Shown: positions 16,554 to 36,556 of the stretch, piece by piece | Layout of the letters: the number at the start of each line of letters is the position of its first letter | How positions within the stretch are numbered: position 1 is the stretch's first letter | Source of the DNA: Candidatus Pacearchaeota archaeon | GTDB taxonomy: Archaea; Nanobdellota; Nanobdellia; Pacearchaeales; GW2011-AR1 | Reading direction: 5' to 3' | DNA length: 64,000 bases | Assembly: GCA_041651235.1 (NCBI GenBank) | Contig: JBAZJQ010000002.1 | Location: 71,615 to 135,614, forward strand | Program-made: the position numbers and the translations under genes | Notes under the pieces: generated by a model | What the model was told of the DNA's origin: nothing | Databases searched by the model: none | What the model saw: the letters and a program-made list of their open reading frames with translations, nothing else

Positions 16554-16610
16554 TTCAGGGTAAATATCTGAATATGGGTAAATGAACTTCTATGCAATAA
16601 TCTTTATAAA

Positions 16611-16877: not shown

Positions 16878-17067
16878 ACTAACATTAATTCTTGCATTAA
16901 GTTCTGGATGTGCAGAAATGAAATTATTTGATTATAAAGCTGCAAAACAGGAATACGAGCAAGAGATGAAAGCAAAAGCCAAGAAAGCAGAAAAATATTT
17001 TTCTAAAATAGGTGAAAATTCTACTGCAGAAGATGTAGAAAGATATTTAGCTAGAAGAGGATATTAA
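16855..17067 (+). CDS. small putative lipoprotein
   Basis: Hydrophobic N-terminus ending in LSSGC. Resembles the preceding ORF. Confidence 0.35.
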   Translation: MGIIKISKLTLILALSSGCAEMKLFDYKAAKQEYEQEMKAKAKKAEKYFSKIGENSTAEDVERYLARRGY

Positions 17068-17101
17068 TTTAAATAGTATGATAAATTATTAGTTATATGA
17101 G

Positions 17102-17350
17102 GTGAAAATGAAAAACTTATTTTACATATTATTGCTGTTAATGGGGTTTTCCATTGGATATTATCTTTCAAGAATCTGCAAAGATGAAATAAAAAAATGG
17201 AGAAAAGAATTATTTTCAATTTCAGTTATATCCCTATTATTTGCTATTGTTTTGTCTTTTACCCAATTTGAATTTAAATTTCCAATTATTTTAACTTGCT
17301 TTTTTATGATAATCACTTTCTTAACAATAACTTGGAAAAGTTATTATTGA
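17102..17350 (+). CDS. small membrane protein
   Basis: 82 aa with three hydrophobic helices. Confidence 0.35.
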   Translation: MKMKNLFYILLLLMGFSIGYYLSRICKDEIKKWRKELFSISVISLLFAIVLSFTQFEFKFPIILTCFFMIITFLTITWKSYY

Positions 17351-17435
17351 TTTGCTTATTAATCTGCTATAGAAATATTTATATATGAAGTTTATCTGAT
17401 ATTGTATATTTATATAGAGGAAAAAGGAGGTTAAA

Positions 17436-17876
17436 ATGAACAAAAAAGGACAAGCAGCTATGGAGTTTTTGATGACTTATGGTTGGGCAATTCTTGCAGC
17501 AGTTATTGCTATTGGTGTTTTAGCATATTTTGGGGTTTTCAGCCCTGGAAAATATGTTACAGGAAATGCCGTAGTAAATCCACCTTTTTACATCAATGCT
17601 TATAATATAAAAGCAAGTGATGGGGTTACTCTTGAAATAAAGGATAATGGTGGAGAAGATTATACTCTAACAAGTGTTGTTGTAAGCGGCTGTGGAACAT
17701 ATAGTACTTCAACTCCAATAACTACAGATGCTCCTGCAGTAATAACTGTTACATGTGCGCCTGCATTAACTGAAGGCGATACTTTAAGTGAAGATATAAC
17801 AATAACATACACTAAAGAAGGAAGCACAGTTGAATTAACATCAACAGGGACAGTAGCTGGAAAAGTAGTAGCTTAA
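17436..17876 (+). CDS. archaeal type IV pilin-like protein (class III signal peptide)
   Basis: MNKKGQAAMEFLMTYGWAILAAVIAIGVLAYF is a classic archaeal prepilin N-terminus. Strong RBS ggaggt upstream. Thr/Val-rich body. Confidence 0.75.
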   Translation: MNKKGQAAMEFLMTYGWAILAAVIAIGVLAYFGVFSPGKYVTGNAVVNPPFYINAYNIKASDGVTLEIKDNGGEDYTLTSVVVSGCGTYSTSTPITTDAPAVITVTCAPALTEGDTLSEDITITYTKEGSTVELTSTGTVAGKVVA

Positions 17877-21765: not shown

Positions 21766-22677
21766 TTAAAACAACCCGCTCATAAAGTTCATAATTAGAG
21801 ATCTTGCAATAAAGAATACACTTAAACTTATAATTAAAATAGCAGGAAGATATCTTAACCCCTGCTTTTCTTCTCCTTTGTTTACTAATCCCAAAACTAA
21901 ACAAGCTAAAACATCTATTACAATTATGAATATAACTGAAAAGAATTTAATGAAAGTTATAGAGATATTTATTTTAGATAAAGTAAATGGCAGACTTACT
22001 GTTGTTGAACTTACTTCTGGCAAACCTGAAAAGATATTTGTTAAAATTTCAACTAAAACTGTTGATAAAGAGAATAATGCAGGAGCAAAAAATGAAACAG
22101 CTAAGAAGATAAATATTACATACATTAAAACATTTGAAGAAGCTTTTTTATCTAACATTTCTTTTTCTCTCATATTTGAGGAAGTATCTTCTAATAAAAC
22201 AGCTAAATCTCCTCCTGCTCGAATCCCGGAATTTATTAATAAAATTGTTTTTTCAATTTTGGGTGAGTTTATTCTTTTTGACATATCTATTAAAGCAAGT
22301 TCTATGCTTTTTCCTGTGGTAATATCTTTTCCTGCCTGAAGTATTTCTGCATCTAATGGAGCAAATTCAGGTCTTGAACTTAATAACATCGCTTTATCAA
22401 TTATCATTCCTGCTCTTAAATTACTTGACATTAATTGAAGAAAATCTGGAAAGACAGTCTCAATTTGCCTAATTCTTGCTGTCTCTTTTAATTTTCTTTT
22501 GAAATAAATATAAACTGCAAAGAGAATGATAGTTAAAACTAAACTTATTAAAGAATATAATATGCTTTTGTAAGCTAAGAAGAATATTATGCTCATTATT
22601 AAACCTAATATAATCGCAAATACTGTCAATCTTTTCATTCTTGCTTTTTCTTGTTTTGGTATTGGTTTTCTTTTCAT
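21766..22677 (-). CDS. type II secretion system F-domain membrane protein (TadC/FlaJ-like)
   Basis: 303 aa polytopic protein in an operon with a T2SS-E ATPase and a second F-domain protein. Confidence 0.7.
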   Translation of the reverse strand: MKRKPIPKQEKARMKRLTVFAIILGLIMSIIFFLAYKSILYSLISLVLTIILFAVYIYFKRKLKETARIRQIETVFPDFLQLMSSNLRAGMIIDKAMLLSSRPEFAPLDAEILQAGKDITTGKSIELALIDMSKRINSPKIEKTILLINSGIRAGGDLAVLLEDTSSNMREKEMLDKKASSNVLMYVIFIFLAVSFFAPALFSLSTVLVEILTNIFSGLPEVSSTTVSLPFTLSKINISITFIKFFSVIFIIVIDVLACLVLGLVNKGEEKQGLRYLPAILIISLSVFFIARSLIMNFMSGLF

Positions 22678-23555
22678 AGTAAACTTGGTTTTCTTGATTT
22701 AATTAACCCTAAAAACATTATTTGAGCAAATACATCAAAAACAAATAATCCTATAAATAACAAAATAATCATTGTAGTTGATAACCCCACCATGGAGGAA
22801 ATTATTGTTAAGAAAGTAACTGATAGAGCCGGGATAATCACAGAGATTAACATATAAAGAACAACCAAGGGATTTAGCTTGCTTCCATAAGCTTGGATTT
22901 GTATTAATTGTTCTTCATTTAATGCCTTAATACTATCTCGAATAATAATAGCTATATCGCTTCCTGCTTTCATTCCATTGCTAATCTGCCATAGAGTTCT
23001 TCTGAAGAAAACAGAAGGATTACTTTTACCTAGTGAATCAAATACTTCTGCTTCTGGTTCTCCTGCATTAATTCTCTTTACTGCTTTCTTAAATTCCAGG
23101 CTTAAACTTCCATAATCCGCATCAGCGATATTAGAAATTATATTAAAAAGAGGAACTCCTGAATTTAACTGAACCAGGATATCCTCTAGTCCCGGAATTA
23201 AATTTTTTTCAATATCCCTTTGTTTTCTTGAAACATAGATTCTTGGGTAAACTCTCTGGCTAAAGAATATAAAAATTGAGAATAAAAATGCTAATAAGAA
23301 TCCAAATAATACAGCAAAAACAATTTTTAGCAATAATAATATTGTAGTTGAAATTACAAAGAAAAATCCAAAAAAAACAACTGCACTTCTCATGCAGATT
23401 CCAAGATATTCTTCTCTTGTTAAATTAATGTCTGAATTTTTTAAATCGTGTCCAAGTTTAGATTCTTTTTTATATTTAAATTTAGAAGAGAAATATCTAG
23501 ATTTACTCTTTAATTTTTCTATTTTTGAGAAAGTAAATGGAATTTTGAATTTCAT
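22674..23555 (-). CDS. type II secretion system F-domain membrane protein (TadB/FlaJ-like)
   Basis: 293 aa polytopic protein. Its start and stop overlap the neighbouring genes. Confidence 0.7.
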   Translation of the reverse strand: MKFKIPFTFSKIEKLKSKSRYFSSKFKYKKESKLGHDLKNSDINLTREEYLGICMRSAVVFFGFFFVISTTILLLLKIVFAVLFGFLLAFLFSIFIFFSQRVYPRIYVSRKQRDIEKNLIPGLEDILVQLNSGVPLFNIISNIADADYGSLSLEFKKAVKRINAGEPEAEVFDSLGKSNPSVFFRRTLWQISNGMKAGSDIAIIIRDSIKALNEEQLIQIQAYGSKLNPLVVLYMLISVIIPALSVTFLTIISSMVGLSTTMIILLFIGLFVFDVFAQIMFLGLIKSRKPSLL

Positions 23556-25168
23556 CTGCCAAGTATTTTTTTGATATCATTTCTAGCAATATCTTTTAGT
23601 AATTGTTCTCTGTCTAAATAATAAAGATTCATAACTTTTCCAAAATCCATTAAATCCCTTATTTTATTTTTAATAAGCCAGGAAAGAATTTTCTTTTTAT
23701 TTTCTAAGTTTTCATTTAATTCTCTTTCGGACATCCCAGTATTTCTTGAAATATCTTCAAAAAATCTTGCACTTTGACTATGTTTTATTATCTTGTCTTC
23801 TTCAGGAATCCATCTATAAATAATATTTGCTCTTGCACTCTTATCTCCTGCCTCAAATTCTGCAACTTGAAAAATTCTTCTTATACCTCTTCTTCTATCT
23901 CTAAACATTACAACATTAAGGTTTACTGCTTTCAATAAATTTGCGGGAATATCCAAAGGGGGATTAGTTAATCTTGAAATTGTTTCTGCTGCTGAATCTG
24001 CATGAAGAGTTGCATAAACACTGTGTCCTGTATGCATTGCTTCAAATAAAACCATTGCCTCTTCTTTTCTCCTCATTTCACCTAGAATGATTCTATCGGG
24101 CCTCATTCTAAGGCTATTAACTAATAAATCTAGCATAGAAACTCCTCCTTTTCCTTCTGGATTAGCTGTTCTAACAACTAAAGGAGTCCAATATAAAAAA
24201 TCAGGGAGCATTAGCTCTCTTGTATCTTCAACACTAATTATTCTATGGTTTGGAGGAATAAATGCAAGGCAGGCATTTAAAAAAGAAGTTTTTCCAGAAG
24301 CGGTTCCTCCTGAAATTAAAATATTCATTTCATATTCTATTGCAAGCCAAATTAAACAGGAAGTATCTAAATCACATGTTCGATTATTTATAAAATCAAC
24401 GATTGTATAAGGATCTCTTGCGAATTTTCTAATTGTTATTGTATTTCCTTTTGTGCTTATTGGATATAAAATAGAATTAACTCTGTCTCCTGAAACTAAA
24501 TGAGCATCTAATAATGGACTTAAGACAGTTATCTGCCTTCCAACTCTTCTTGCAATAATATTTGAATAGTTATTTATCTCATCTTCTCTTGCAATCTTTA
24601 AATTAGTAATCAACCACCCATATTTTTTATGATAAACCCGAATTGGTTCTTTTGCAGAAGGAATTACAATCTCTTCTAAATTCATATCATTAACTAAGAA
24701 CTCTATTTCACCTAAACCAAGCATATCCTGCATTAATTTGCTTATTAAAAATTCCTTAGTATGCTCATCTATTGTAGGAAGTTTAGATCTCAATAAAGTA
24801 GTTGCTTCTGCCATAAACCTTTTTTTAATATTATTAAATGCATTAGGGTCTATTATCTCGCTCATTCCTATTGTTGTAACTGTTACTAATTCGGTCCTTA
24901 TATCATCGAGTAAAGTTGCTGTAGCAGTAGATACTTCTGGGACATAAAGATTGTAGGTATATCCTAATTCTCCTTTTTTTATTTCAACTCTTACTTTGGA
25001 CTTATCGATTTCTATTTCATAAGAATCCTGGTTTTTTGCATTAGAAGTTTCAAAAGGATGTTTAATATTTGTTTTTATTTCTGATTTAATTACTTCATCT
25101 GGTTTCTTCTTTGGAAAGAATTTCTTTTTAAAAAATAATTTATTGTGTTTTTTATGTTTCATTATCAC
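23552..25168 (-). CDS. type II/IV secretion ATPase (FlaI/TadA/VirB11 family), pilus assembly ATPase
   Basis: Walker A ISGGTASGKTS, plus VEDTRELML, RMRPDRIILGEMR and TGHSVYATLHA blocks. Confidence 0.85.
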   Translation of the reverse strand: MIMKHKKHNKLFFKKKFFPKKKPDEVIKSEIKTNIKHPFETSNAKNQDSYEIEIDKSKVRVEIKKGELGYTYNLYVPEVSTATATLLDDIRTELVTVTTIGMSEIIDPNAFNNIKKRFMAEATTLLRSKLPTIDEHTKEFLISKLMQDMLGLGEIEFLVNDMNLEEIVIPSAKEPIRVYHKKYGWLITNLKIAREDEINNYSNIIARRVGRQITVLSPLLDAHLVSGDRVNSILYPISTKGNTITIRKFARDPYTIVDFINNRTCDLDTSCLIWLAIEYEMNILISGGTASGKTSFLNACLAFIPPNHRIISVEDTRELMLPDFLYWTPLVVRTANPEGKGGVSMLDLLVNSLRMRPDRIILGEMRRKEEAMVLFEAMHTGHSVYATLHADSAAETISRLTNPPLDIPANLLKAVNLNVVMFRDRRRGIRRIFQVAEFEAGDKSARANIIYRWIPEEDKIIKHSQSARFFEDISRNTGMSERELNENLENKKKILSWLIKNKIRDLMDFGKVMNLYYLDREQLLKDIARNDIKKILGR

Positions 25169-25178
25169 CTTTTTTGTT

Positions 25179-25901
25179 TTAGTTTAGTTTTGCTTGTTTT
25201 TCTCTTATTTTTTTTAATTTAGCATTCATTTTTTCTATTTTCTTTTTTGCTTTAATTATGTGCCTTGGTTCTTTTACTGGTTTATTAACTATTATTCTTT
25301 TTTTGTCTTCTAATTTTTGTATTATTTCCTTTTCCTTAGACGATGAAATTTCGCTCTTCTTTTCATCTTTTTTTATTTCTTTGCTTGCTAGTTGCTGTTT
25401 ATTTTCTTTTTCTATAATTTTTATTACGGGTTCCCCAAATCCGGGATAATCAATTATTGCTAAAGAACCAGATTCTAAGATTTTACCCCATTCAAGTGCA
25501 ATTTCGGGGTCTACATTAAATGCTTTTGCGATTGTTGAAACTCTTAGTTTCTTTTTATCTTTAAGTACTTCATAAAGGGTATCTAAATCCGTTTTATTTG
25601 CTCCTGATTTTCTCTTGAGATTTAAACTTAAAACTTCTTTATCTTGATTTTTTAATCGATTATCTTTAAATGCAACAGAAAGTAATAAAAGAATTAAAAT
25701 TGTCCATTGAACTATTAAAAACATCTTAGAGATATAGGGTAGTCCAGAATATGCGTTATAAACAGTTGATTTAACTGAAAATCCTGTAAACCCGCCTTTT
25801 ATATCCCCATATTTGTATACATAAGATACTAAATTTAATAAGAAAATCAAAGATATTACAAAGAATACTCTAAAAAACAATATTTTCTCCTCTTTTGCCA
25901 T
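25179..25901 (-). CDS. membrane protein, first gene of the pilus assembly operon
   Basis: Two or three N-terminal TM helices, a possible small helical domain (VSTIAKAFNVDPEIALEWGKIL) and a Lys-rich tail. Confidence 0.45.
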   Translation of the reverse strand: MAKEEKILFFRVFFVISLIFLLNLVSYVYKYGDIKGGFTGFSVKSTVYNAYSGLPYISKMFLIVQWTILILLLLSVAFKDNRLKNQDKEVLSLNLKRKSGANKTDLDTLYEVLKDKKKLRVSTIAKAFNVDPEIALEWGKILESGSLAIIDYPGFGEPVIKIIEKENKQQLASKEIKKDEKKSEISSSKEKEIIQKLEDKKRIIVNKPVKEPRHIIKAKKKIEKMNAKLKKIREKQAKLN

Positions 25902-26071: not shown

Positions 26072-27100
26072 CTATAAGTCCGGGTTATATATTAACTTTG
26101 CTGTTTTTATTATATCTCTTCTTAATTTAAAACTATTTGCCCATTTTGCATAAGCATTCCATCCTTGAAAACTCTCAATTAATTTTTCTTTAGAAATCTC
26201 ATTTCTTTTAAATTCATCAATTTTATTAATAAAATTCTTTATGTTTCTCTTTCTTAACAACCTAAAATAATAAAAATTTCTAAAACCCACAAAATCAATT
26301 CCTCTTGAAAGTCCAATTATCCTTGATTTATCTGGATGAAGTTCAATTTTTAATTTTTCTTTTAAAAATTCATCAATTTCTTTTTTCCAAATTTCTAGCT
26401 GTTCTTTTGATTTATGCAAAATCACAAAGTCATCTACATACCTAATATAATATTTTGCTTTTAATTTAGGTTTTATAAAATAATCTAATTCATTTAAGTA
26501 AACATTAGCAAAAAATTGTGAAGTCAAATTACCAAGGGGCATTCCAACTCCTTCTTCAACTTTCCTGTTAATTAAAATTTTTCTAATTAAATTCATTAAT
26601 TTTTCATCTTCTATTTTTCTTTGAAGAATAGAAATTAAAACTTCATGATTAACCTCTTGAAAATAATGTTTTATATCTGCTTTTAAACAATAAACTTTTT
26701 TTGTTCCATTAAATGAGACTTTTCTCTTGAATAAATCTAATCTTTTTAATGCAAATAAAGTTCCTTTTCCTATTCTATTTGCACAGGAATCATGGATAAA
26801 TATCTTTTCAAAAATAGGCTCAATTATATTTATAATTGAATGATGAACTATTCGGTCTCTAAATATTGACTTCGAGATTTTTCTGGTTTTTGGGTCTCGC
26901 AAAATAAATGTTTTCAAGGGTTTAGGGAAATAAGTTTTATTTTTTAATTCTTCATGTAATTTCAAAATATTCTCTCTAAAATTTTTCTCAAATTTAATAA
27001 CATAATCTTTTTTTGTCTTGCCTTTACGGGCTTTTCTCCATGCAAGAATTAAATCTTTCTTATTATAGATTTCAGAATAAAGATTTTTATAAGTTTTCAT
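26072..27100 (-). CDS. DGR-type reverse transcriptase
   Basis: 342 aa with RT motifs including YVDD and the DGR-typical motif-4 signature PLGNLTSQFFANVYL ([I/L]GxxxSQ). No maturase or endonuclease extension. The TR starts 24 nt upstream of its ATG. Confidence 0.85.
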   Translation of the reverse strand: MKTYKNLYSEIYNKKDLILAWRKARKGKTKKDYVIKFEKNFRENILKLHEELKNKTYFPKPLKTFILRDPKTRKISKSIFRDRIVHHSIINIIEPIFEKIFIHDSCANRIGKGTLFALKRLDLFKRKVSFNGTKKVYCLKADIKHYFQEVNHEVLISILQRKIEDEKLMNLIRKILINRKVEEGVGMPLGNLTSQFFANVYLNELDYFIKPKLKAKYYIRYVDDFVILHKSKEQLEIWKKEIDEFLKEKLKIELHPDKSRIIGLSRGIDFVGFRNFYYFRLLRKRNIKNFINKIDEFKRNEISKEKLIESFQGWNAYAKWANSFKLRRDIIKTAKLIYNPDL

Positions 27101-27124
27101 AATAATAAAGTCCTGAAGCCAAAC

Positions 27125-27209
27125 TATTCCAAGCGAGGCATTAGCATTCTCAGGATTCCTGTTGCAATTCAGGTTAACCCTGTCAGAGTTAGCATTGAAC
27201 CTCGCGACT
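27125..27209 (-). repeat. DGR template repeat (TR), 85 bp, non-coding
   Basis: Aligns without gaps to five ORF 3' ends. Read in the target frame it gives VARFNANSDRVNLNCNRNPENANASLGI, with eight AAY Asn codons. It has 25 A on the minus strand, and 23 of them are substituted in at least one VR. Confidence 0.85.
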
Positions 27210-27451
27210 TTGTTAGCAATTTCATCACTGCATCACTGCAATTATAATTTTCATCAAATAAAAGTAAAAAGCTTCAATCTTCATTTTACTGATTTTAATT
27301 GCGGTATTTCATGGCTTAAATCAAATAAAAATGCTCTAATGAAATTACATGTAGTCTGAATATTCAGAGTAAAACTCCAAAATCTTCAGGACAAGATAAA
27401 AAATAAATAAGATTATATAAATTCTTTCTCATATCAAATTCTTAAATTTTT

Positions 27452-28288
27452 TTACTTAGCGCCTTCGGCGCAACCACGTACCCCAAGCGAGGCAAGAGCA
27501 CCCCCAGGACTCCTGCCGCAACCCAGGTCCACCCAGCCAGAGTTAGCATCCAACCCCGCGACTCTTTCATCTATTTCATTGGGCTTTGAATCTACTCTCC
27601 AGATATATGGATTAGTTTGATTAATCCAATTATAAATAGAATTAATTTGATCAATATCCCCATCTCCTAAAAGTGCATTTAATGCTGGACTATCTCTTGA
27701 TTTAATAAACCTGTCTGGACCAATTATTTTTTCTTCTAATTCATATTGTTCATTTGTTTTGTAATTATGAATAATTTTATCTTTTCCTCTTGGCTGATAA
27801 GCTATTCTTGTTAAAGTTATAGGCCATTTATCTCTCATTGAGCTTTGTATAAACTTTCTTGCTTCTTCTGATTCTGGATTGTCTTTTTGTTCAAATAATG
27901 CTGTAAAAACAGCATGATAAAGAGGCATATCTGCAGTATAAAATTCTCCTTTTGGCTGTGCTATATTTCTGTAGTATACCCAGTAATCCTGAGTTTGTGC
28001 CTGCCCATTTTCAAGCAAAGTTTTAGCTAAATCAAAAGTATGAATTCCATTTCTATAGCTTACATTTGGAATTGTCCAGTAATCTCCTGCATTAATTATT
28101 GATTGATTTGGGTTTGTATTAGCAGGAATAACAACTTCTTGCTTGGGAAGATTATTAGTTTTAGCTTTATTTCCTTTATCTCTTCTGCTTTCTTCTTCTG
28201 CTTCTCTGTTTATTCTTGCAATTAAATCCTTGTCATAATGAATTCTCTTCCAATCTCCTCTGTCTCCTATTTGATTTAAGATTGTCAT
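27452..28288 (-). CDS. DGR variable (target) protein A
   Basis: 278 aa paralog with the shared N-terminus MTILNQIGDRGDWKRIHYDKDLIARINREAEE. VR1 is at the C-terminus (VAGLDANSGWVDLGCGRSPGGALASLGV). No signal peptide or TM segment. Confidence 0.85.
   Translation of the reverse strand: MTILNQIGDRGDWKRIHYDKDLIARINREAEEESRRDKGNKAKTNNLPKQEVVIPANTNPNQSIINAGDYWTIPNVSYRNGIHTFDLAKTLLENGQAQTQDYWVYYRNIAQPKGEFYTADMPLYHAVFTALFEQKDNPESEEARKFIQSSMRDKWPITLTRIAYQPRGKDKIIHNYKTNEQYELEEKIIGPDRFIKSRDSPALNALLGDGDIDQINSIYNWINQTNPYIWRVDSKPNEIDERVAGLDANSGWVDLGCGRSPGGALASLGVRGCAEGAK
27459..27471 (-). promoter_or_regulatory. GC hairpin 3' of VR1
   Basis: gcgcc-ttc-ggcgc, 7 nt from the VR1 boundary. Confidence 0.55.
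27479..27563 (-). repeat. DGR variable repeat VR1
   Basis: 19 mismatches to the TR in 85 bp, 17 of them at TR adenines (hand alignment). Confidence 0.85.
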
Positions 28289-29163
28289 TTTATTCCTCCT
28301 GAATTTTTTGTTTCAGCGCCCTTCGGGCGCACGACTAAACGTACCCCAAGAGAGGCATCAGCATACTCTGGACCCCAGTAGCAATACAGGTTAACCCCGC
28401 CAGAGCTAGCATCGAACCTCGCGACTCTTTCATCTACATTTTTAGGTTTTTCATTTAATCTCCAGAGATATGCATTAGTTTGATTAATCCATTGATAAAC
28501 CGAATTTATTTTATTAATATCTCCATTTCCTAAAAGAGATTTTAATGCCAAGCAATCTCCTGATTCAATGAGTCTATCTGGACCAATTATTTTTTCTTCT
28601 AATTCATATTGTTCATTTGTTTTGTAATTATGAATAATTTTATCTTTTCCTCTTGGCTGATAAGCTATTCTTGTTAAAGTTATAGGACATTTTTGTCTCA
28701 TTGAGTTTTGTATAAATTGCCTTGCTTCTTCAGCAATTTGTTTAAATTGAGGATTGTCTTTTTGTTCAAATAATGCTGTAAAAACAGCATGATAAAGAGG
28801 CATATCTCCTGTATAAAATTCTGCTTTTGGCTGTGCTATCTTTCTGTATTCTGCCCATTGCTCTTGTGTTTTTGCCTGCCCATTTTCAAGCAAAGTTTTA
28901 GATAAATCAAAAGTATGAATTCCATTTCTATAGCTTACATTTGGAATTGTCCAGTAATCTCCTGCATTAATTATTGATTGATTTGGGTTTGCATTTTCAG
29001 GAATAGTTGCTTCTTGCTTGGGAAGATTATTAGTTTTAGCTTTATTTCCTTTATCTCTTCTGCTTTCTTCTTCTGCTTCTCTGTTTATTCTTGCAATTAA
29101 ATCCTTGTCATAATGAATTCTCTTCCAATCTCCTCTGTCTCCTATTTGATTTAAGATTGTCAT
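28285..29163 (-). CDS. DGR variable (target) protein B
   Basis: 292 aa paralog. Its start overlaps... correction: its stop overlaps the start of protein A (ATGA-type junction). VR2 is near the C-terminus and is followed by the tail GVRLVVRPKGAETKNSGGIK. Confidence 0.85.
   Translation of the reverse strand: MTILNQIGDRGDWKRIHYDKDLIARINREAEEESRRDKGNKAKTNNLPKQEATIPENANPNQSIINAGDYWTIPNVSYRNGIHTFDLSKTLLENGQAKTQEQWAEYRKIAQPKAEFYTGDMPLYHAVFTALFEQKDNPQFKQIAEEARQFIQNSMRQKCPITLTRIAYQPRGKDKIIHNYKTNEQYELEEKIIGPDRLIESGDCLALKSLLGNGDINKINSVYQWINQTNAYLWRLNEKPKNVDERVARFDASSGGVNLYCYWGPEYADASLGVRLVVRPKGAETKNSGGIK
28316..28330 (-). promoter_or_regulatory. GC hairpin 3' of VR2
   Basis: gcgccc-ttc-gggcgc. Confidence 0.55.
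28343..28427 (-). repeat. DGR variable repeat VR2
   Basis: 15 mismatches to the TR, 13 of them at TR adenines. Confidence 0.85.
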
Positions 29164-29174
29164 TTTATTTTGGT

Positions 29175-30911
29175 TTATTTTATTCCTCCTCTTAAAATTT
29201 TATCTGTCAAGTCAATTGTTTTATTTGCCAAATCATTATTTCCTAAAACCTGCTCTGCATAAAATCCTGCTTTTTTTAAATCTTTAAACATTTCAGTCTG
29301 ATTTCCTATTTGAAGGTGAAAATAATAATGCTTTCCAGCATTATCTAAATAATTCTTTTTAATGCTTCTCCAATTATCAACCTCTCCATCTGAAATTGAG
29401 AAAATTAAATTCCCTCTTCCTTCAAAAAAACTTTTAACTTTGTTTAAATCTAATGAGGTATCCCCAAATTGAGGAGATAAAGCAACTTTTTTTGATTCAA
29501 GCAGTCCTTTTCCTATAACTGTTTCTTCACTAAATCCAGCTAAATCAACTGCATTTTGGTTTAACAAATGATTTTGCCTTAGATATTCTAAAAATCCATA
29601 CCAAGATAAAAGAGCATAATGATATCTGCTGTTGTTGCCCCAGGGAATCATTGTCTTAGAGCCAGCATCTCTTCCGCCAGCAGGATTCCAAGCCATACTG
29701 CCAGAACAATCAATTAAGCCAAATCTTGCTCTTGGAAATCCTCTCTGACTTATTTTAACTTCAAGAGGCATATTTAGATTCCATCTTTTTTTCTTTATGT
29801 CTAATTCTCCTGAATCATTTACTCCTAAACTTATATGCTTTAAATCATCTGTTTCTGGGTCAAATTCTCTTGAACCATACCAAAAAATAGGCATAGATGA
29901 TTGTTTTGTAAAGCTCTCTGCTTTTATATTTAATTTTTTAGCTAAACTTTCATAAATTAAATCTAATCCTTCAAAACTATTTATCCAATTAGGTATTTCC
30001 TCTCCTGAATTATAAGCTTTTTGAATTCTTGTTCTTTTAAAGTCCTTTGTTTTCATTTCCCTGTCAAATTCATTTCCTTCAGAGGAGCTTTCTTCTGTTT
30101 TTTTTCCTTTTGTTCCTGAACCATTATGGTTCATAAGGCATTGCGCATAATTTGGCTCCATTAACTCAGACATATTTTTTGCATAAGCTTGTGAGATTTT
30201 CTGCCAGTTCTTTTCATTTAAAAGATAACTTCTTATTTTACTTTTATCCCTGATTTTTGCCTCATTTAATTCCTGCTTAAATTCATTTATTCCACTTTCT
30301 TCTAAAAATCCACTTAAAGCTTCTAATATTTTCTTTCTTTGTTTTTCATCTGATGTAAAATATTTTTTTAATTGCTGTTTTTGGGTTTTATTTGCCCATA
30401 AAGCATTGTTTAATCTTGCATGTGCCTCATAAAAAGCAGTATATTTTCCTGAAGTTTCCCCAACATCTTTAAAAAATTCATTTATTCCCTGCAATGAAAA
30501 TCCATTTGACAAGTCATCATGCAGAATTGTATCTTCCAAAGCATTAGACATATAATGAGCATCTTCAGGTGAAAATCCTTTTTCTGCTAAAACATCCATA
30601 ATCGGCTCATAAATTAAATTAACATGATTGTCTAAATTTCTAGGACATCCGGAATACCCTTTATATTTATGATGATTTATTTCATGTCTTATTCCATCTC
30701 TTACAACAATAGGAGTTTTACCTGAATTTTTTTCTTCATAAAAAGGATCATATTTTATTTCTGTTTTTTTGTTTTCTAAAGAAGTTCTCATTTGAAAATG
30801 GGGCTCATTTCTTTGGGGATTATATTCTTCAACAGAGATATCTCTAAAATCAAATCCTCCCCTATTGCTTTCTATTTCAGCTATATTTTTTATTTCTTGT
30901 TTTGTTATCAT
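29175..30911 (-). CDS. HExxH motif + von Willebrand factor A (MIDAS) domain protein
   Basis: 578 aa. HEINH at GIRHEINHHKY in the N-terminal third. MIDAS DxSxS at GLIDCSGSM, with SISDGEVDN later. Sits between target genes C and B. Confidence 0.75.
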   Translation of the reverse strand: MITKQEIKNIAEIESNRGGFDFRDISVEEYNPQRNEPHFQMRTSLENKKTEIKYDPFYEEKNSGKTPIVVRDGIRHEINHHKYKGYSGCPRNLDNHVNLIYEPIMDVLAEKGFSPEDAHYMSNALEDTILHDDLSNGFSLQGINEFFKDVGETSGKYTAFYEAHARLNNALWANKTQKQQLKKYFTSDEKQRKKILEALSGFLEESGINEFKQELNEAKIRDKSKIRSYLLNEKNWQKISQAYAKNMSELMEPNYAQCLMNHNGSGTKGKKTEESSSEGNEFDREMKTKDFKRTRIQKAYNSGEEIPNWINSFEGLDLIYESLAKKLNIKAESFTKQSSMPIFWYGSREFDPETDDLKHISLGVNDSGELDIKKKRWNLNMPLEVKISQRGFPRARFGLIDCSGSMAWNPAGGRDAGSKTMIPWGNNSRYHYALLSWYGFLEYLRQNHLLNQNAVDLAGFSEETVIGKGLLESKKVALSPQFGDTSLDLNKVKSFFEGRGNLIFSISDGEVDNWRSIKKNYLDNAGKHYYFHLQIGNQTEMFKDLKKAGFYAEQVLGNNDLANKTIDLTDKILRGGIK

Positions 30912-30955
30912 TTTGTTTGTATTTTATTATTTAAATTGTTACATTCCAAATTTTT

Positions 30956-31723
30956 TTACTTAGCGCCTTCGGCGCAACCACGTACCCCAAGCGAGGCACC
31001 AGCATTCTCAGGATTCCTGCCGCAATCCAGGTCAACCCTGTCAGAGCCAGCATAGAACCTCGCGACTGAATTATTTCTTGGCTGCCAAAAATAAATATTA
31101 TTTCCTTGAGAATAATTTTGTATACTAGAACTTGTTTTGCATAATCCTTTATCTGTTATATTTGCTTTAGAGCTGATGTCTGCCCAACAATCTGAATTTA
31201 AATAATCACTAATTTCTACTTTATTTGTTAATACTAATTCTCCATTTGATTTAATTCCTTTAATATGCTGAATATAGAATTTATCTCCCTCTTTTGTAAA
31301 ATAAGCGTTTTGGTTTTCTCCATGCCAGATATCTTTAGGAGTTCGTTTAAGAATATCATCATAAACTTCTCTATGTTCCGGATTATCTAAATTATCTTTA
31401 AGATAAAAAATCAATTCCCATGTTTGTTCTGGAGTAGGCATTAAGAGATTTTCAGAAATTAAAGCTTTATTCTGGTCATACCAATTAGTATTTTGATGAG
31501 TTCTTTGTCTTGCAAAACTCATATCTATTAAAGGAACATAAACCCATTTATCATTTATTTCTCCCTTTCCAGCTTGGTTTTGTCTTTGTTCTGTTGGTTT
31601 AACAGGCAGTTTTCCTCTTCTGCTTTTTTCTTCTGCTTCTCTGTTTATTCTTGCAATTAAATCCTTGTCATAAGGAATTCTCTTCCAATCTCCTCTGTCT
31701 CCTATTTGATTTATGATCGTCAT
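30956..31723 (-). CDS. DGR variable (target) protein C (divergent central domain)
   Basis: 255 aa. Shares the N-terminal ~33 aa and the VR/tail (GVRGCAEGAK) with the other targets, but the central ~170 aa are unrelated by eye. Confidence 0.8.
   Translation of the reverse strand: MTIINQIGDRGDWKRIPYDKDLIARINREAEEKSRRGKLPVKPTEQRQNQAGKGEINDKWVYVPLIDMSFARQRTHQNTNWYDQNKALISENLLMPTPEQTWELIFYLKDNLDNPEHREVYDDILKRTPKDIWHGENQNAYFTKEGDKFYIQHIKGIKSNGELVLTNKVEISDYLNSDCWADISSKANITDKGLCKTSSSIQNYSQGNNIYFWQPRNNSVARFYAGSDRVDLDCGRNPENAGASLGVRGCAEGAK
30963..30975 (-). promoter_or_regulatory. GC hairpin 3' of VR3
   Basis: gcgcc-ttc-ggcgc, identical to the VR1 hairpin. Confidence 0.55.
30983..31067 (-). repeat. 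DGR variable repeat VR3
   Basis: 11 mismatches to the TR, all at TR adenines. Confidence 0.85.
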
Positions 31724-32565
31724 ATTAAACTCCTTTTAGAATTTTTTGTTTCAGCGCCCTTCGGGCGCACGACTAAACGTACCCCAAGCGAGGCACCAGC
31801 AACCTCAGGATACCTGCCGCAACTCAGGCAAACCCTGTCAGAGCCAGCACCGAACCCCGCGACTCTTTCATCAACTGATTTAGGCTTTGAATTTAATCTA
31901 AAAAGATAAGCATTAGTTTGATTAATCCAATTATAAATAGAATTAATTTGATTAATATCTTCATTTCCTAAAAGTGCTTTTAATGCTGAACTATCTCCTG
32001 ATTCAATGAGTCTATCTGGACCAATTATATTTTCTTCTAATTCATATTGTTCATTTGTTTTGTAATTATGAATTATTTTATCTTTTCCTCTTGGCTGATA
32101 AGCTATTCTTGTTAAAGTTATAGGATATTTTTGTCTCATTGATTTTTGTATAAACTTTCTTGCTTCTTCTGATTCTGGATTGTCTTTTTGTTCAAATAAT
32201 GCTGTAAAAACAGCATGATAAAGAGGCATATCTCCTGTATAAAATTCTGCTTTTGGCTGTGCTATCTTTCTGTATTCTGCCCATTGCTCTTGTGTTTTTG
32301 CCTGCCCATTTTCAAGCAAAGTTTTAGATAAATCAAAAGTATGAATTCCATTTCTATAGCTTACATTTGGAATTGTCCAGTAATCTCCTACATTAATTAT
32401 TGATTGATTTGGATTTATATTAACAGGAGGATTGGTTTTTATTTTGTTTCCTTTATCTTTTCTGCTTTTTTCTTCTGCTTCTCTGTTTATTCTTGCAATT
32501 AAATCCTTGTCATAATGAATTCTCTTCCAATCTCCTCTGTCTCCTATTTGATTTAAGATTGTCAT
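31720..32565 (-). CDS. DGR variable (target) protein D
   Basis: 281 aa paralog. The N-terminal ~126 aa are identical to protein E, and the tail is like protein B. Confidence 0.85.
   Translation of the reverse strand: MTILNQIGDRGDWKRIHYDKDLIARINREAEEKSRKDKGNKIKTNPPVNINPNQSIINVGDYWTIPNVSYRNGIHTFDLSKTLLENGQAKTQEQWAEYRKIAQPKAEFYTGDMPLYHAVFTALFEQKDNPESEEARKFIQKSMRQKYPITLTRIAYQPRGKDKIIHNYKTNEQYELEENIIGPDRLIESGDSSALKALLGNEDINQINSIYNWINQTNAYLFRLNSKPKSVDERVAGFGAGSDRVCLSCGRYPEVAGASLGVRLVVRPKGAETKNSKRSLI
31754..31768 (-). promoter_or_regulatory. GC hairpin 3' of VR4
   Basis: gcgccc-ttc-gggcgc. Confidence 0.55.
31780..31864 (-). repeat. DGR variable repeat VR4
   Basis: 17 mismatches to the TR, all at TR adenines. 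Confidence 0.85.
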
Positions 32566-32576
32566 GTTATTTTATT

Positions 32577-33425
32577 TTATTTTATTCCTCCTGAATTTTG
32601 TGACGAGTTCGCCTGCGGGCGAACACGTACCCCAAGAGAGGCATCAGCATCCTCAGGAACCCCGTAGCAATCCAGGTCCACCCCGTCAGAGAGCGCATTG
32701 AACCTCGCGACTCTTTCATCTACATTTTTAGGTTTTTCATTTAATCTCCAGAGATATGCATTAGTTTGATTAATCCATTGATAAACCGAATTTATTTTAT
32801 TAATATCTCCATTTCCTAAAAGAGATTTTAATGCCAAGCAATCTCCTGATTCAATGAGTCTATCTGGACCAATTATTTTTTCTTCTAATTCATATTGTTC
32901 ATTTGTTTTGTAATTATGAATAATTTTATCTTTTCCTCTTGGCTGATAAGCTATTCTTGTTAAAGTTATAGGACATTTTTGTCTCATTGAGTTTTGTATA
33001 AATTGCCTTGCTTCTTCAGCAATTTGTTTAAATTGAGGATTGTCTTTTTGTTCAAATAATGCTGTAAAAACAGCATGATAAAGAGGCATATCTCCTGTAT
33101 AAAATTCTGCTTTTGGCTGTGCTATCTTTCTGTATTCTGCCCATTGCTCTTGTGTTTTTGCCTGCCCATTTTCAAGCAAAGTTTTAGATAAATCAAAAGT
33201 ATGAATTCCATTTCTATAGCTTACATTTGGAATTGTCCAGTAATCTCCTACATTAATTATTGATTGATTTGGATTTATATTAACAGGAGGATTGGTTTTT
33301 ATTTTGTTTCCTTTATCTTTTCTGCTTTTTTCTTCTGCTTCTCTGTTTATTCTTGCAATTAAATCCTTGTCATAATGAATTCTCTTCCAATCTCCTCTGT
33401 CTCCTATTTGATTTAAGATTGTCAT
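32577..33425 (-). CDS. DGR variable (target) protein E
   Basis: 282 aa paralog. The body is identical to protein B over ~195 aa up to the VR. It has a different tail (GVRVRPQANSSQNSGGIK). Confidence 0.85.
   Translation of the reverse strand: MTILNQIGDRGDWKRIHYDKDLIARINREAEEKSRKDKGNKIKTNPPVNINPNQSIINVGDYWTIPNVSYRNGIHTFDLSKTLLENGQAKTQEQWAEYRKIAQPKAEFYTGDMPLYHAVFTALFEQKDNPQFKQIAEEARQFIQNSMRQKCPITLTRIAYQPRGKDKIIHNYKTNEQYELEEKIIGPDRLIESGDCLALKSLLGNGDINKINSVYQWINQTNAYLWRLNEKPKNVDERVARFNALSDGVDLDCYGVPEDADASLGVRVRPQANSSQNSGGIK
32607..32624 (-). promoter_or_regulatory. GC hairpin 3' of VR5 (different stem sequence, same structure)
   Basis: gttcgcc-tgcg-ggcgaac. Confidence 0.55.
32628..32712 (-). repeat. 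DGR variable repeat VR5
   Basis: 16 mismatches to the TR, 13 of them at TR adenines. Confidence 0.85.
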
Positions 33426-33446: not shown

Positions 33447-34889
33447 TTATTGCTGCTTATCTTTTTCTTTATTCTCTTGTTTTTCTTGGCTATCTTTATC
33501 TTTCTTGTTTTTTGCCATATCTATTTCAATATCAACTGCATCTTTTACCCAAGACAAACCAATAGCACGATTATTATTAAATGGCTCATAAGGATTAACT
33601 GCACTTTTTCCTTTTTGAGATAATTCGCTGTACCCTAACAAAGTTGTTCCATCTGCAGTTTTAAAATAATCTAAAGCTCTGTTTCCTTTTGTTGCTTCTT
33701 CCAGAGAAGTTAAAATTATGTCCTGATTTTCTTTAAAATCGCTCTTCAATCTTTCTGCAACTTCTGCAATCATTTTTGGAGCTTCATCTAAATATTCTGA
33801 TTTTAATATGCTGGGATTTAAAACATTCTGATAAGCAGAAGTTAATTCAAATGCCTTAAACATTAAATCAACTGGATTTATTTCCTGCTCGGGATTTTTT
33901 AATTTTGCAAGATAATGCAAAGCAGAAGCATATCTGGCAACAGATTGAAGTGTTCTTTGAACAGGAACACTTACAAGAGAACAGATTTCCTTTCCATTTT
34001 TATTTCTTGAACAATCCTGGCATTTATATGGCCAGGTTTTTCCTTTTGCAGTTGGAGATTCTCCTTCTCCCTGGCAATTTCCTAATCCAAACTTTAAATA
34101 ATCCATTACTGCTCTTGCTTCTAATCCCGGCTCCAATGTTAATTGAGAAATTTCTTTGTTTGCCTGAATAATTTTTTCAGTTAAATCTCTTTTAGGGGCT
34201 TCTTTTATTCCAGGATGAGCTTCTCTTAATCTGTCTATAAGAATTCTGTCTTCAATTGTTGGCTGAAACTGGCTGTAATCTAAATCTAAAACTAATCCAA
34301 ACCTGTTCCCAAGTGCTTTATCAACATCAAAAGTTCCCTTAAACTCGCCATTTCCATAATTTGCAGTAGCTATTGAAGAAACATATCCTTTATCTCCAAT
34401 TGGAATTGAATTTCCTTTATGCATTATTCTTCCATTTCCAATTGCTAAAAATTGGTTCTGTGCAATGGGAGGACATCTGTTAAATTCCTCTAAATCCCAA
34501 AATAAAGATTTATGATTGCCATTTAATACTCTTTGAACCTGCTCTTTGTTAATATCAGTTAAAATATCCCGGTAAATATCAAGTTCAGAATGCCCTTCTA
34601 TTGTTAATGCATGTCCCCCTTCTAATTTGCTTCCATTAAAATAATAATTATGAATATCTCTTGCAAGCTGAGATTTACCGCATCCAGTATTTCCAATTAA
34701 AAGAGTGTTCATTCCAGCTAAAACTCCTGCAACAGCTAAATCAGTTACATTTAATCCTGCAAAAAAATTATTAGTATTAAGATAAACAGGGCAGTTTTCT
34801 TTAATATATTCAGGAGTTTTTCCATCTAAAAAAGCTTTTTTTGCTTTTTCCCCTAATTTTAAGTCCTCATAAGATAGTTTATCTGCCAT
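33447..34889 (-). CDS. AAA+ ATPase (MoxR/AAA_5-like) with a Cys-rich insertion and an acidic/Lys-rich tail
   Basis: Walker A LLIGNTGCGKSQ, Walker B-like LFWDLEEF and ATANYG...ALGNRFGLVLDL, reminiscent of MoxR-type sensor/Arg regions. Also CQGEGESPTAKGKTWPYKCQDCSRNKNGKEIC. Confidence 0.7.
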   Translation of the reverse strand: MADKLSYEDLKLGEKAKKAFLDGKTPEYIKENCPVYLNTNNFFAGLNVTDLAVAGVLAGMNTLLIGNTGCGKSQLARDIHNYYFNGSKLEGGHALTIEGHSELDIYRDILTDINKEQVQRVLNGNHKSLFWDLEEFNRCPPIAQNQFLAIGNGRIMHKGNSIPIGDKGYVSSIATANYGNGEFKGTFDVDKALGNRFGLVLDLDYSQFQPTIEDRILIDRLREAHPGIKEAPKRDLTEKIIQANKEISQLTLEPGLEARAVMDYLKFGLGNCQGEGESPTAKGKTWPYKCQDCSRNKNGKEICSLVSVPVQRTLQSVARYASALHYLAKLKNPEQEINPVDLMFKAFELTSAYQNVLNPSILKSEYLDEAPKMIAEVAERLKSDFKENQDIILTSLEEATKGNRALDYFKTADGTTLLGYSELSQKGKSAVNPYEPFNNNRAIGLSWVKDAVDIEIDMAKNKKDKDSQEKQENKEKDKQQ

Positions 34890-35237: not shown

Positions 35238-35651
35238 ATGATAAATAAAAAATCACAGGTAAGTATTGAATATATAATTATAATGGGATTTGTAACTATT
35301 GTTATAATTGGGCTTTTGGGTATTGCTTTTGTTTATAGTGGGAGCATAAAAGACAGGCTTAAAATGACTCAAATAAATAATTTTGGAAATAAAATAATAT
35401 CCACAGCAGAATCTGTTTTTTATTATGGAGAGCCTTCCAAAGCTACAATTTCTGTTTATCTTCCAGAAAATGTTGAACAAATTGAAATATCAGAAAATAC
35501 CTTGTTTATTACATATCAAGGAAGTTCTGGAATAGATAAAATTGCCTTTTCAAGTGAAGTTCCTATTGAAGGAACTTTAAATTCCATTTCAGGTGTTAAA
35601 AAAATAGAAATTATAGCTGAAGAAAGTAGAGCAACAATTAGCCAAGTTTAA
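35238..35651 (+). CDS. archaeal pilin-like protein (class III signal peptide)
   Basis: MINKKSQVSIEYIIIMGFVTIVIIGLLGIAFVY. Confidence 0.65.
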   Translation: MINKKSQVSIEYIIIMGFVTIVIIGLLGIAFVYSGSIKDRLKMTQINNFGNKIISTAESVFYYGEPSKATISVYLPENVEQIEISENTLFITYQGSSGIDKIAFSSEVPIEGTLNSISGVKKIEIIAEESRATISQV

Positions 35652-35652
35652 A

Positions 35653-36048
35653 ATGATTTTCAAAAAAGCACAAAGCAGTATTGAGTTTATGATTCTTGTA
35701 GGGGTAGTTATATTTTTTTTAGTTGTTTTCTTAGGAGCAATACAAGGGAGTATGTCTGATAAATTAAAAGAAAAACAAAGCATTATGGTTCAGGATTTAG
35801 CTTCATCTGTTCAAGATGAAATTAATCTTGCTTCAAAATCAAGTGATGGCTATTACAGAAATTTTAATATTCCTGAAAAAATAAATGGCAGAGATTATAG
35901 TATTGAAATATTAGAGGAAATGGTTTATGTTAAAACAAATGATAATAAAAATGCTCTTGCTCTCCCTCTTGCTTCTGTAACTGGAAATGTTGTAAAAGGA
36001 GAGAATATAATTACAAAACAAAATGGAGAGGTTGTTTTGAATCCGTAA
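35653..36048 (+). CDS. archaeal pilin-like protein (class III signal peptide)
   Basis: MIFKKAQSSIEFMILVGVVIFFLVVFLG. Confidence 0.65.
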   Translation: MIFKKAQSSIEFMILVGVVIFFLVVFLGAIQGSMSDKLKEKQSIMVQDLASSVQDEINLASKSSDGYYRNFNIPEKINGRDYSIEILEEMVYVKTNDNKNALALPLASVTGNVVKGENIITKQNGEVVLNP

Positions 36049-36049
36049 A

Positions 36050-36556
36050 ATGAAAGAACAAGCAATAATTATTTTTATTCCAAATAATAAGAAAATAGAT
36101 GATGTTAGAAAAAAATATGATAGGTATTATAAAGAATTTAAGCCACATATAACTTTGGTTTATCCATTTAAAGTTGCTAACCAAAAAAAGGTTTGTGAAC
36201 ATATTATTAATTCTATAAAAAATTTTAAATCATTTAAAATAGAATTAAAAGGATTAAAAAGATCAGCTAAAGAGTATTATCTTTATCTTGTAATTAATAA
36301 AGGAAAAAATAATATTGTCAAATTGTATAAAAAACTTAATTCTGGAATATTAAAGGGATTTGAAAATAAAAAAATGCCTAGATATATCCCCCATGTAACT
36401 CTTGGAAGCTTTTCTAGCAAATCTAAGATGGAGGAAGCAATTAAAATTATTAAAAAGAAGGATATTAAAATAAATGCAGATATAAGCAAAATTCATCTAC
36501 TGACTTTTAAAAAAGGAGCAGAAATAGAAAAAATTAAGGGGTTTAAATTAAAATGA
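36050..36556 (+). CDS. 2H phosphoesterase (LigT / 2'-5' RNA ligase-like)
   Basis: Two HxT/S motifs, KPHITLVYPF and IPHVTLGSF, about 80 aa apart. Confidence 0.7.
   Translation: MKEQAIIIFIPNNKKIDDVRKKYDRYYKEFKPHITLVYPFKVANQKKVCEHIINSIKNFKSFKIELKGLKRSAKEYYLYLVINKGKNNIVKLYKKLNSGILKGFENKKMPRYIPHVTLGSFSSKSKMEEAIKIIKKKDIKINADISKIHLLTFKKGAEIEKIKGFKLK

Follow-up and report, generated by a model that had tools for sequence, protein, structure and literature searches.

A diversity-generating retroelement with five target genes, a template-linked RT-16 RNA and an AAA/HExxH-VWA cassette in a Pacearchaeota archaeon

A 64,000-nucleotide stretch of DNA from Candidatus Pacearchaeota archaeon (assembly GCA_041651235.1, contig JBAZJQ010000002.1, positions 71,615 to 135,614 of the forward strand; hereafter, the window, whose own numbering is used for the features described) contains a diversity-generating retroelement (DGR) together with five target genes, all on the minus strand (Table 1). 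Read in the direction of transcription, a gene for a MoxR-like AAA+ ATPase is followed by targets 5, 4 and 3, a gene for a protein with an HExxH motif and a VWA domain, targets 2 and 1, an RNA of the RT-16 type, a template repeat (TR) and a reverse transcriptase (RT) gene. Each target open reading frame (ORF) carries one variable repeat (VR) that is a gap-free copy of the TR. An initial annotation of the same DNA had named the RT, the TR and the VRs, and passed over the AAA and VWA genes that the target array contains. The identity of the element as a DGR is secure. We read it as a probably intact, chromosomal DGR of a clade known from candidate phyla radiation (CPR) bacteria and from DPANN archaea that lacks the accessory protein Avd, and we hold this reading at a probability of roughly 85%; the RNA priming model and the roles of the target proteins are ones that we infer.

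Table 1. Features of the retroelement and its cassette, in ascending window coordinates (H1 and H2, long-range helices).
Feature	Position	Strand	Remarks
DGR reverse transcriptase	26072..27100	minus	342 aa, full-length ORF, LGNLTSQ and YVDD
H2, 3' strand	27110..27118	minus	CUUCAGGAC; 10-18 nt upstream of RT ATG; overlaps AGGA Shine-Dalgarno-like motif
H1, 3' strand	27119..27126	minus	UAGUUUGG; last two TR nt (U84, A85) and six more
Template repeat (TR)	27125-27209	minus	85 nt, non-coding, adjoins RT gene
RT-16 RNA (Rfam RF03019)	27208..27392	minus	cmscan match 27208-27390, plus 2 nt for H2
Stop-like helix	27339-27348 with 27216-27225	minus	10 bp, RT-16 strand
CUACA motif	27350-27354	minus	4/5 bases invariant; proposed priming A at 27352
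H1, 5' strand	27352-27359	minus	UCAGACUA (27359-27352)
Inner hairpin	within 27360-27383	minus	RT-16 sub-feature
H2, 5' strand	27384-27392	minus	GUCCUGAAG (27392-27384)
Target 1	27452..28288	minus	278 aa
GC hairpin after VR1	27459-27471	minus	GCGCC-GAA-GGCGC
VR1	27479-27563	minus	gap-free TR copy
Target 2	28285..29163	minus	292 aa; stop overlaps target 1 start
GC hairpin after VR2	28316-28330	minus	GCGCCC-GAA-GGGCGC
VR2	28342-28426	minus	gap-free TR copy
HExxH+VWA protein	29175..30911	minus	578 aa; HExxH H76, E77, H80; metal ion-dependent adhesion site (MIDAS) D401, S403, S405, T485, D508
Target 3	30956..31723	minus	255 aa; divergent paralogue, 35% identical to target 5
GC hairpin after VR3	30963-30975	minus	GCGCC-GAA-GGCGC
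VR3	30983-31067	minus	gap-free TR copy
Target 4	31720..32565	minus	281 aa; stop overlaps target 3 start
GC hairpin after VR4	31754-31768	minus	GCGCCC-GAA-GGGCGC
VR4	31780-31864	minus	gap-free TR copy
Target 5	32577..33425	minus	282 aa
GC hairpin after VR5	32607-32624	minus	GUUCGCC-CGCA-GGCGAAC
VR5	32628-32712	minus	gap-free TR copy
MoxR-like AAA+ ATPase	33447..34889	minus	480 aa, Walker A GNTGCGKS; first cassette gene

The TR and the VRs were compared by gap-free alignment, recomputed on the coding (minus) strand. The VRs lie at the 3' ends of the five ORFs, ending 27-60 nt before the stop codons, and a scan of the whole window turned up no further TR-like copy, i.e., the total is one TR and five VRs. 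Homology between the TR and the VR flanks continues, more weakly, to about 27225, and the end of the TR is separated from the RT start codon by 24 nt. Results showed 78 mismatches to the TR (19, 15, 11, 17, and 16 in VR1 to VR5, respectively), and these are not spread evenly over the TR bases: 71 (91%) fall on A, four on T, two on G and one on C, in a TR composed of 25 A, 21 G, 21 T and 18 C. Every mismatch of VR3 and VR4 is at an adenine, while VR1, VR2 and VR5 together hold seven that are not. Substitution in at least one VR was found at 23 of the 25 TR adenines, the exceptions being terminal positions 1 and 85; at TR positions 82 and 83, every one of the five VRs has G. Since adenines account for 23 of the 28 variable sites compared to 25 of the 85 positions (hypergeometric p = 7e-14), and the adenine excess among the 78 mismatches has a binomial p of 4e-30, chance is excluded. 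In the target frame, the TR reads VARFNANSDRVNLNCNRNPENANASLGI, with eight AAY codons. Its 21 mutable adenines are distributed over 13 codons and always occupy codon position 1 or 2. A stop codon is unreachable, and the adenines allow 4.4e12 DNA variants, or about 1.1e12 protein variants, per VR. The initial annotation had arrived at the same mismatch totals, the same adenine counts (25 of 85, with 23 substituted), the same restriction of VR3 (11 sites) and VR4 (17 sites) to adenines, and the same eight AAY codons and 21 variable sites (4^21 variants). Its coordinates were right for four VRs; VR2, which it placed at 28343-28427, was one base off, and that register gives 70 mismatches as opposed to 15 in 28342-28426.

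Related loci were collected by two routes, i.e., 10 genome loci through the target family, using a profile built from 11 closer sequences, and 80 metagenome loci through the RT. A VR was within reach in 33 of the related loci, and their 42 VRs gave 589 TR/VR mismatches, of which 540 (92%) were at adenines. The element had been described in the initial annotation as unusually clean, a claim that does not survive this comparison (91% here), and the element of the window is instead typical of its clade. Adenine substitutions are mostly to G, both here (56 of 71; 79%) and in the clade, where the 42 VRs hold 377 substitutions to G, 141 to T and 22 to C (70% G).

The RT matches Pfam RVT_1 (2.9e-22), and its closest solved relative is the RT of the Bordetella phage DGR (bRT; 8ub7), to which residues 2-326 align with an E-value of 7e-47; matches to group II intron, retron-type and defence RTs in PDB are at 2e-22 or weaker. 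It carries LGNLTSQ, an instance of the [I/L/V]GxxxSQ signature, the first residue of which, in bRT, promotes mutagenesis at adenines (PMC7826257), as well as YVDD and the equivalent of bRT Arg74, so that the earlier description of a DGR-type enzyme is borne out. No other ORF in the whole window has the DGR RT motif. A defence-system assignment was considered and dropped, as PADLOC returned generic RT matches alone and no system call. Homologues of the RT number in the thousands at about 70% identity, and the named ones come from Paceibacteria (CPR), Nanoarchaeota, Woesearchaeota and Pacearchaeota; the occurrence of RT and target homologues in Nanoarchaeota, Woesearchaeota, Pacearchaeota and CPR bacteria fits the DPANN attribution. 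Among 36 ORFs, which include all cassette genes and the nearby small ORFs, none had an Avd-like Pfam match. Directly downstream of the RT gene lies a gene for a 240-aa lysine-rich protein (25179-25901, minus strand) with one N-terminal hydrophobic segment, for which neither a family match nor a homologue in the related loci was found.

The RT gene is in a different condition at three of the genome loci. At L001 (13791-14830) it is split at a G10 run, and at L005 (12404-13419) by a 1-nt deletion in the LTSQFF codons. Programmed frameshifting was considered for these and rejected, as the two breaks are at different sites; they are read as decay or assembly error. At L008 (17291-18424), a target, RT-16 and TR are found without an adjoining RT, and a lysyl-tRNA synthetase gene comes next on the other strand; either the RT has been lost or it acts from elsewhere in the genome.

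Comparisons between targets separate the VR from the rest of the genes. Outside the VR, target 3 has diverged from its four paralogues at about 42% of nucleotides, whereas at the 60 non-adenine VR sites it shows 0-3 differences from them and matches the TR throughout. Targets 2 and 5 are only 3.7% apart outside the VR, yet 9 of their 20 scored mutable adenine sites (45%) differ. Homogenized non-adenine sites together with scrambled adenine sites are the footprint expected of repeated mutagenic retrohoming, and near-identical targets that differ at adenine sites place the diversification after a recent gene duplication.

In phage BPP-1, the initiation of mutagenic homing (IMH) boundary and a hairpin direct homing. 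Here, the 3' boundary of the VR is GGGGUACG in all five VRs as opposed to GGAAUAG in the TR, and the same distinction, GGGGU in the VR versus GGAAU in the TR, holds for all five VRs of the window and for 38 of the 42 VRs in the 33 related loci. Each of the five VRs is followed by a GC hairpin of 5-7 bp, whereas the TR is followed by AT-rich sequence without a hairpin. The hairpin encodes CAEGA in targets 1 and 3, while targets 2 and 4 use another frame of it and have RPKGA. Since it is read in two frames, selection acts on the hairpin as DNA or RNA rather than on the encoded peptide. C-terminal tails like CAEGA and RPKGA recur in homologues of other genomes. By analogy, the VR boundary and hairpin would correspond to the IMH boundary and hairpin of BPP-1, with the same putative function.

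RT-16 fills the 240 nt that separate target 1 from the TR; it abuts the TR 5' end and was matched over its full model (positions 1-158 of 158) at 56.6 bits, the gathering score being 50. The initial annotation had treated 27210-27451 and the 24 nt between TR and RT as plain spacers; they in fact hold RT-16 and its pairing partners. RT-16 is one of 19 RT-associated motifs that were published without a function, and RT-10 alone was tied to a DGR (PMC5737381; Weinberg et al., 2017). RT-16 was also found at L001, L005 and L008 (55-95 bits), in the order last target, RT-16, TR as in the window. About 60 of the 80 metagenomic loci also carry RT-16-like sequence, at a distance of some 120-430 nt upstream of where the RT starts. 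Two adjacent helices that are not in the Rfam model (H1 and H2) connect RT-16 to the far end of the TR, i.e., the 17 nt from the last two TR bases onward pair with the 5' part of RT-16, and H2 is a perfect 9-nt inverted repeat. An unconstrained minimum-free-energy fold of 27396-27098 contains H2, the inner hairpin, H1 and the stop-like helix (z = -4.41). On the RT-16 strand, H1 and the stop-like helix are 3 nt apart, and the partner of the stop-like helix ends 6 nt upstream of the TR.

Both helices were examined for covariation in 49 non-identical loci. For H1, the loci were anchored on CUACA and AAU[A/G]G and pairs were read gap-free, with no fitted alignment. Results showed that 93.1% of H1 cells were in standard pairs compared to 77.9% in column shuffles (0 of 500 shuffles reached the observed value), while sliding the partner by one to three columns left 24-52% paired. 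Double-sided changes were found in 75 cells, with 31 expected, and include A-U/G-C, C-G/U-A and A-U/U-A swaps. The terminal A:U pair of H1 (A27352 with TR U84) was invariant in all 49 loci. Since the register of H2 varies, this helix was tested by swapping partners among the loci: the duplex energy was -14.8 kcal/mol with the true partner and -9.3 kcal/mol with the partner of another locus (p 1.4e-14), and pairing is kept by more than 15 different helix sequences. A Shine-Dalgarno-like 4-mer is present at -20 to -1 of the RT start in 40 of the 49 loci.

These RNA features can be compared with those of BPP-1. According to cryo-electron microscopy, the TR of BPP-1 and the spacer (Sp) that follows it form a template:primer duplex; its priming nucleotide, Sp A56, is base-paired to TR U118, and copying begins at TR G117. 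A further duplex, the cPRT Stop, is reached two nucleotides on along that Sp strand and involves sequence just upstream of the TR, leaving the TR looped out (PMC6182149; bioRxiv 10.1101/2023.10.23.563531). The window element shares with BPP-1 the full-length RT alignment (E 7e-47), adenine-specific mutagenesis, and a GC-rich 3' boundary after the VR together with a hairpin missing from the TR. With two duplexes on a shared strand, its TR would likewise be looped out between a 3'-end duplex and an upstream duplex, a BPP-1-like geometry. However, the strand common to both duplexes is part of RT-16, on the 5' side of the TR, whereas in BPP-1 it is Sp, on the 3' side. The layout is not of the BPP-1 type, the structured RNA being 5' of the TR and the gap between TR and RT only 24 nt. 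Furthermore, no Avd gene was found (36 ORFs, Pfam), and there are five chromosomal targets as opposed to one phage tail-fibre gene.

In the mechanism that we propose, a minus-strand transcript running from about 27392 to past 27100 would comprise RT-16, the TR and the start of the RT gene. The 17 nt from the last two TR bases onward would fold back on RT-16 to form H1 and H2, and the RT-16 helix would close just upstream of the TR. The RT would then cis-prime cDNA from the invariant A of CUACA, paired with TR U84, such that synthesis would start at TR position 83, proceed to the TR 5' end with misincorporation opposite adenines, and end at the stop-like helix. The resulting cDNA would replace a VR, steered by two marks absent from the TR, the GC hairpin and a 3' boundary of the GGGGUACG type; that positions 82 and 83 are never diversified in VRs would follow from their location in the boundary region. 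We infer the roles of H1 and the stop-like helix in priming and termination by analogy to BPP-1. In this scheme, RT-16 would supply both the primer strand and the stop duplex, clamped by H2 over the RT ribosome-binding region. Since H2 covers that region, one RNA could serve as either RT mRNA or cDNA template, with no accessory protein, and the pairing of H2 over the AGGA motif is a possible switch between the translated and template states. One published survey looked for conserved RNA elements in DGRs with Avd and in five archaeal genomes, using 40 nt on the upstream side of the TR and 100 nt on its downstream side, and would have missed the RT-16 arrangement.

The five target ORFs are paralogues. 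ATGA stop/start overlaps between targets 2 and 1 (28285-28288) and between targets 4 and 3 (31720-31723) suggest translational coupling within one operon. The N-terminal 35 residues are identical in all five, the divergent target 3 included (e.g., 33321-33425), and the three targets of L001 (9176-13430) share an N-terminal module of their own that is different. Such a pattern suggests a module for docking or handling that is particular to each genome and evolves together with another part of the cassette. The target family has 68 detectable relatives, and all named ones are hypothetical proteins of Nanoarchaeota or Nanoarchaeia. The variable columns of the family alignment coincide with the VR, and no Pfam domain was found in 45 family members. 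Only 6 of the 80 loci whose RTs are closely related contain the family, which makes the target cassette one subtype within a promiscuous clade of RTs. For target 5, AlphaFold gave a confident model (pLDDT 88.3) that had no Foldseek match in PDB or BFVD at an E-value below 0.3, the lone hint being human MCL, a C-type lectin, at a probability of 0.08. A C-type-lectin fold was sought by Foldseek (PDB, BFVD), by phmmer and profile searches of PDB and by Pfam on the 45 members, with nothing significant found. No signal peptide or hydrophobic segment was found in the five targets (highest 19-residue Kyte-Doolittle mean 0.27-0.65), nor a hydrophobic segment in any cassette protein, and the targets are predicted to be soluble and cytoplasmic.

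The two remaining protein genes of the cassette recur with the targets. The 480-aa ATPase matches Pfam AAA_5 weakly (E 1.2e-5; 25.7 bits, cut-off 22), and its L001 orthologue falls below the cut-off; orthologues are in the same cassette position at L001, L004, L005 and L007. In the 578-aa protein, the HExxH motif and the full MIDAS (DxSxS, T, D) are invariant across an alignment of 42 family members, and the family is rare, with 201 representatives among 1.84 billion. Its AlphaFold model (pLDDT 87.6) was matched by Foldseek in the C-terminal half to the VWA domain of CLCA1 (1.8e-4), to BatB and to Rpn10. The N-terminal HExxH domain had no match in Pfam, NCBIfam or a PDB sequence search, nor did its fold have one. 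L001 (Nanoarchaeia) and L005 (Woesearchaeota) also have the order AAA, targets, HExxH/VWA, target, RT-16, TR, RT; the cassette order is found at L004 and L007 without an RT in reach, and a homologue of the HExxH/VWA protein stands beside targets at L012, L046 and L069 as well.

Cyanobacteria and gammaproteobacteria are known to have MoxR-vWA "VMAP ternary" conflict systems whose sensors are diversified by DGRs (Kaur et al., 2020, PMC7159879; Dore et al., 2024, PMC10907252). The present cassette resembles them in combining a MoxR-like AAA_5 protein and an intact-MIDAS VWA protein with DGR-diversified, predicted cytoplasmic proteins. It differs in that their vWA is fused to the diversified domain, whereas here the VWA is fused to the HExxH domain, and in that the VMAP and effector proteins present there were not found here: Pfam, NCBIfam and PADLOC scans of the cassette proteins revealed no VMAP, TIR, trypsin or caspase peptidase, or cyclic-nucleotide effector. 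With respect to an effector, the VWA-fused HExxH domain is the sole candidate for a catalytic site. According to Dore et al. (PMC10907252), those CPR and DPANN DGRs that belong to their clade 5F are without conflict-system domains. We advance a "MoxR-vWA-like recognition system" as a hypothesis, and the cassette is not placed in the VMAP family. In the most likely reading, the targets would be interchangeable, diversified binding subunits that work with the AAA/VWA pair.

More boldly, RT-16 would be a circularly permuted equivalent of the BPP-1 spacer RNA throughout the Avd-less CPR/DPANN clade; separately, in one subtype of the clade, the targets may be interchangeable recognition subunits of a MoxR-AAA/HExxH-VWA machine of DPANN archaea, to which they would dock by way of the N-terminal module that each genome has in its own form. 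This proposal is tentative, and we place it somewhat below an even chance. A number of observations weigh against the main reading of the element, of its RNA and of its targets. Four related target-family loci are without an AAA/VWA gene in the available sequence, three of which end at a contig end, so the link between targets and AAA/VWA may not be obligatory. The target fold has no PDB or BFVD match, such that a C-type-lectin scaffold is not supported. The seven non-adenine mismatches suggest that some time has passed since the last homing event. In vitro, bRT most often inserts A opposite template adenine, then C, then G, corresponding to coding-strand A>T, A>G and A>C (PMC7826257), and the 79% A-to-G bias found here departs from that spectrum; in the sequence, selection and enzyme preference are inseparable. 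H1 and H2 compete with base pairs in the outer part of the Rfam RT-16 model's P1 hairpin, and the H1/H2 pairing may therefore be one of two alternative RNA states and not the sole fold. Lastly, priming from A27352 is proposed by pure analogy.

The genes around the cassette include type-IV-pilus-like genes on one flank (two T2SSF and a T2SSE, 21766-25168, minus strand) and, on the other, pilin-like ORFs with class III signal peptides (35238-36048, plus strand), a DUF7266 protein and an 831-aa VWA protein (37162-39657, plus strand). A linkage of the cassette to pili was considered and rejected, as the T2SSE/T2SSF/pilin neighbourhood was not found around the cassette at L001, L005 or L007. A gene for a LigT-like 2H phosphoesterase/2'-5' RNA ligase (36050-36556, plus strand; Pfam 2_5_RNA_ligase2, 1.4e-21) is 1.2 kb from the cassette and of possible interest because the BPP-1 DGR cDNA is 2'-linked to its RNA. 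A role for its product as a debranching enzyme was not retained, as no such gene was called around the L001 cassette. Next after the L001 cassette come genes for a tyrosine integrase and a tRNA (16172-17549), and the cassette may thus travel on an integrative element; Pfam scans of the ORFs around the cassette of the window turned up no integrase.

Could the similarity of the repeats have come about without an active retroelement? Tandem paralogues that share long, near-identical stretches of DNA could be homogenized by ordinary gene conversion, with the TR a mere pseudogene fragment. However, 91% of the differences are on one base of one strand, the template consists of AAY codons that are unable to mutate to stop, it is located between a conserved RT-associated RNA and a DGR-type RT, and the same pattern recurs in 33 other loci, all of which leaves gene conversion scarcely credible. 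A fossil DGR, whose RT, TR and VRs are now inert and whose VR differences were frozen long ago, is a more serious alternative. Non-adenine mismatches have accumulated in VR1, VR2 and VR5, and the RT frames broken at L001 and L005 and the lack of an adjoining RT at L008 indicate that decay occurs in this DGR family. In the window, on the other hand, the RT ORF is full length with all catalytic motifs; the TR, RT-16, H1, H2 and all five hairpins are intact; VR3 and VR4 are free of non-adenine mismatches; and targets 2 and 5 differ at nearly half of their adenine sites while hardly differing elsewhere. We consider a fossil improbable, and an intact DGR remains our preferred reading.

The role of the targets is a separate matter. 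Host attachment is the usual proposal for DPANN DGR targets (PMC6349945), and the five proteins could be cell-surface or pilus-associated adhesins for attachment to host cells, with the AAA and VWA proteins serving their export or assembly. The position of the cassette between type-IV-pilus-like and pilin-like genes, followed by the 831-aa VWA protein, is in keeping with such a role, and MoxR-VWA pairs are known assembly chaperones, including that of an archaeal virus tail (as cited in PMC7159879). Yet the five targets lack a signal peptide or hydrophobic segment, and the pilus neighbourhood is absent at L001, L005 and L007 despite the conserved cassette, making adhesins rather unlikely. The AAA/VWA link, the lack of signal peptides and the shared N-terminal module point instead to intracellular, ATPase-coupled recognition, with which a surface-adhesin role fits less well.

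As the initial annotation stated, DGRs of DPANN archaea have been reported before, and the element joins a large, described CPR/DPANN group (Paul et al., 2015, PMC4372165; the "CPR set" of Wu et al., 2018, PMC5758913). It shares with that group the RT lineage, orphan targets without Pfam domains, several targets per element, and a TR followed by the RT with no accessory gene, i.e., Architecture A, a layout to which 29% of the DGRs of Wu et al. (2018, PMC5758913) belong. Nothing basic differs, five linked targets being at the high end. A single RT/TR pair serving several paralogous targets is also found in the TvpA DGR of Treponema denticola, which has seven targets (PMC5758913). Those are scattered lipoproteins with an FGE-sulfatase/C-type-lectin fold, whereas the targets here are in tandem, without signal peptides and with no fold match. 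The element alone is therefore not new; it is a further well-preserved example of a described group. In the literature compared, which does not cover Paul et al. (2017, Nat Microbiol 2:17045), AAA and HExxH/VWA array genes, the placement of RT-16 and the long-range helices are not described for the CPR/DPANN clade. New here are the correction of VR2, the link of RT-16 to the TR, two covarying helices with a putatively permuted BPP-1 geometry in the absence of Avd, and the AAA and HExxH/VWA cassette. The last of these may have been described already by Paul et al. (2017).

Avd-less DGRs make up about 29% of catalogued elements and include most of the relatives of this RT. The RNA architecture drawn from 49 loci offers a concrete, testable account of how such DGRs may prime and stop cDNA synthesis, and it proposes a role for RT-16, a motif that has been without one since 2017.

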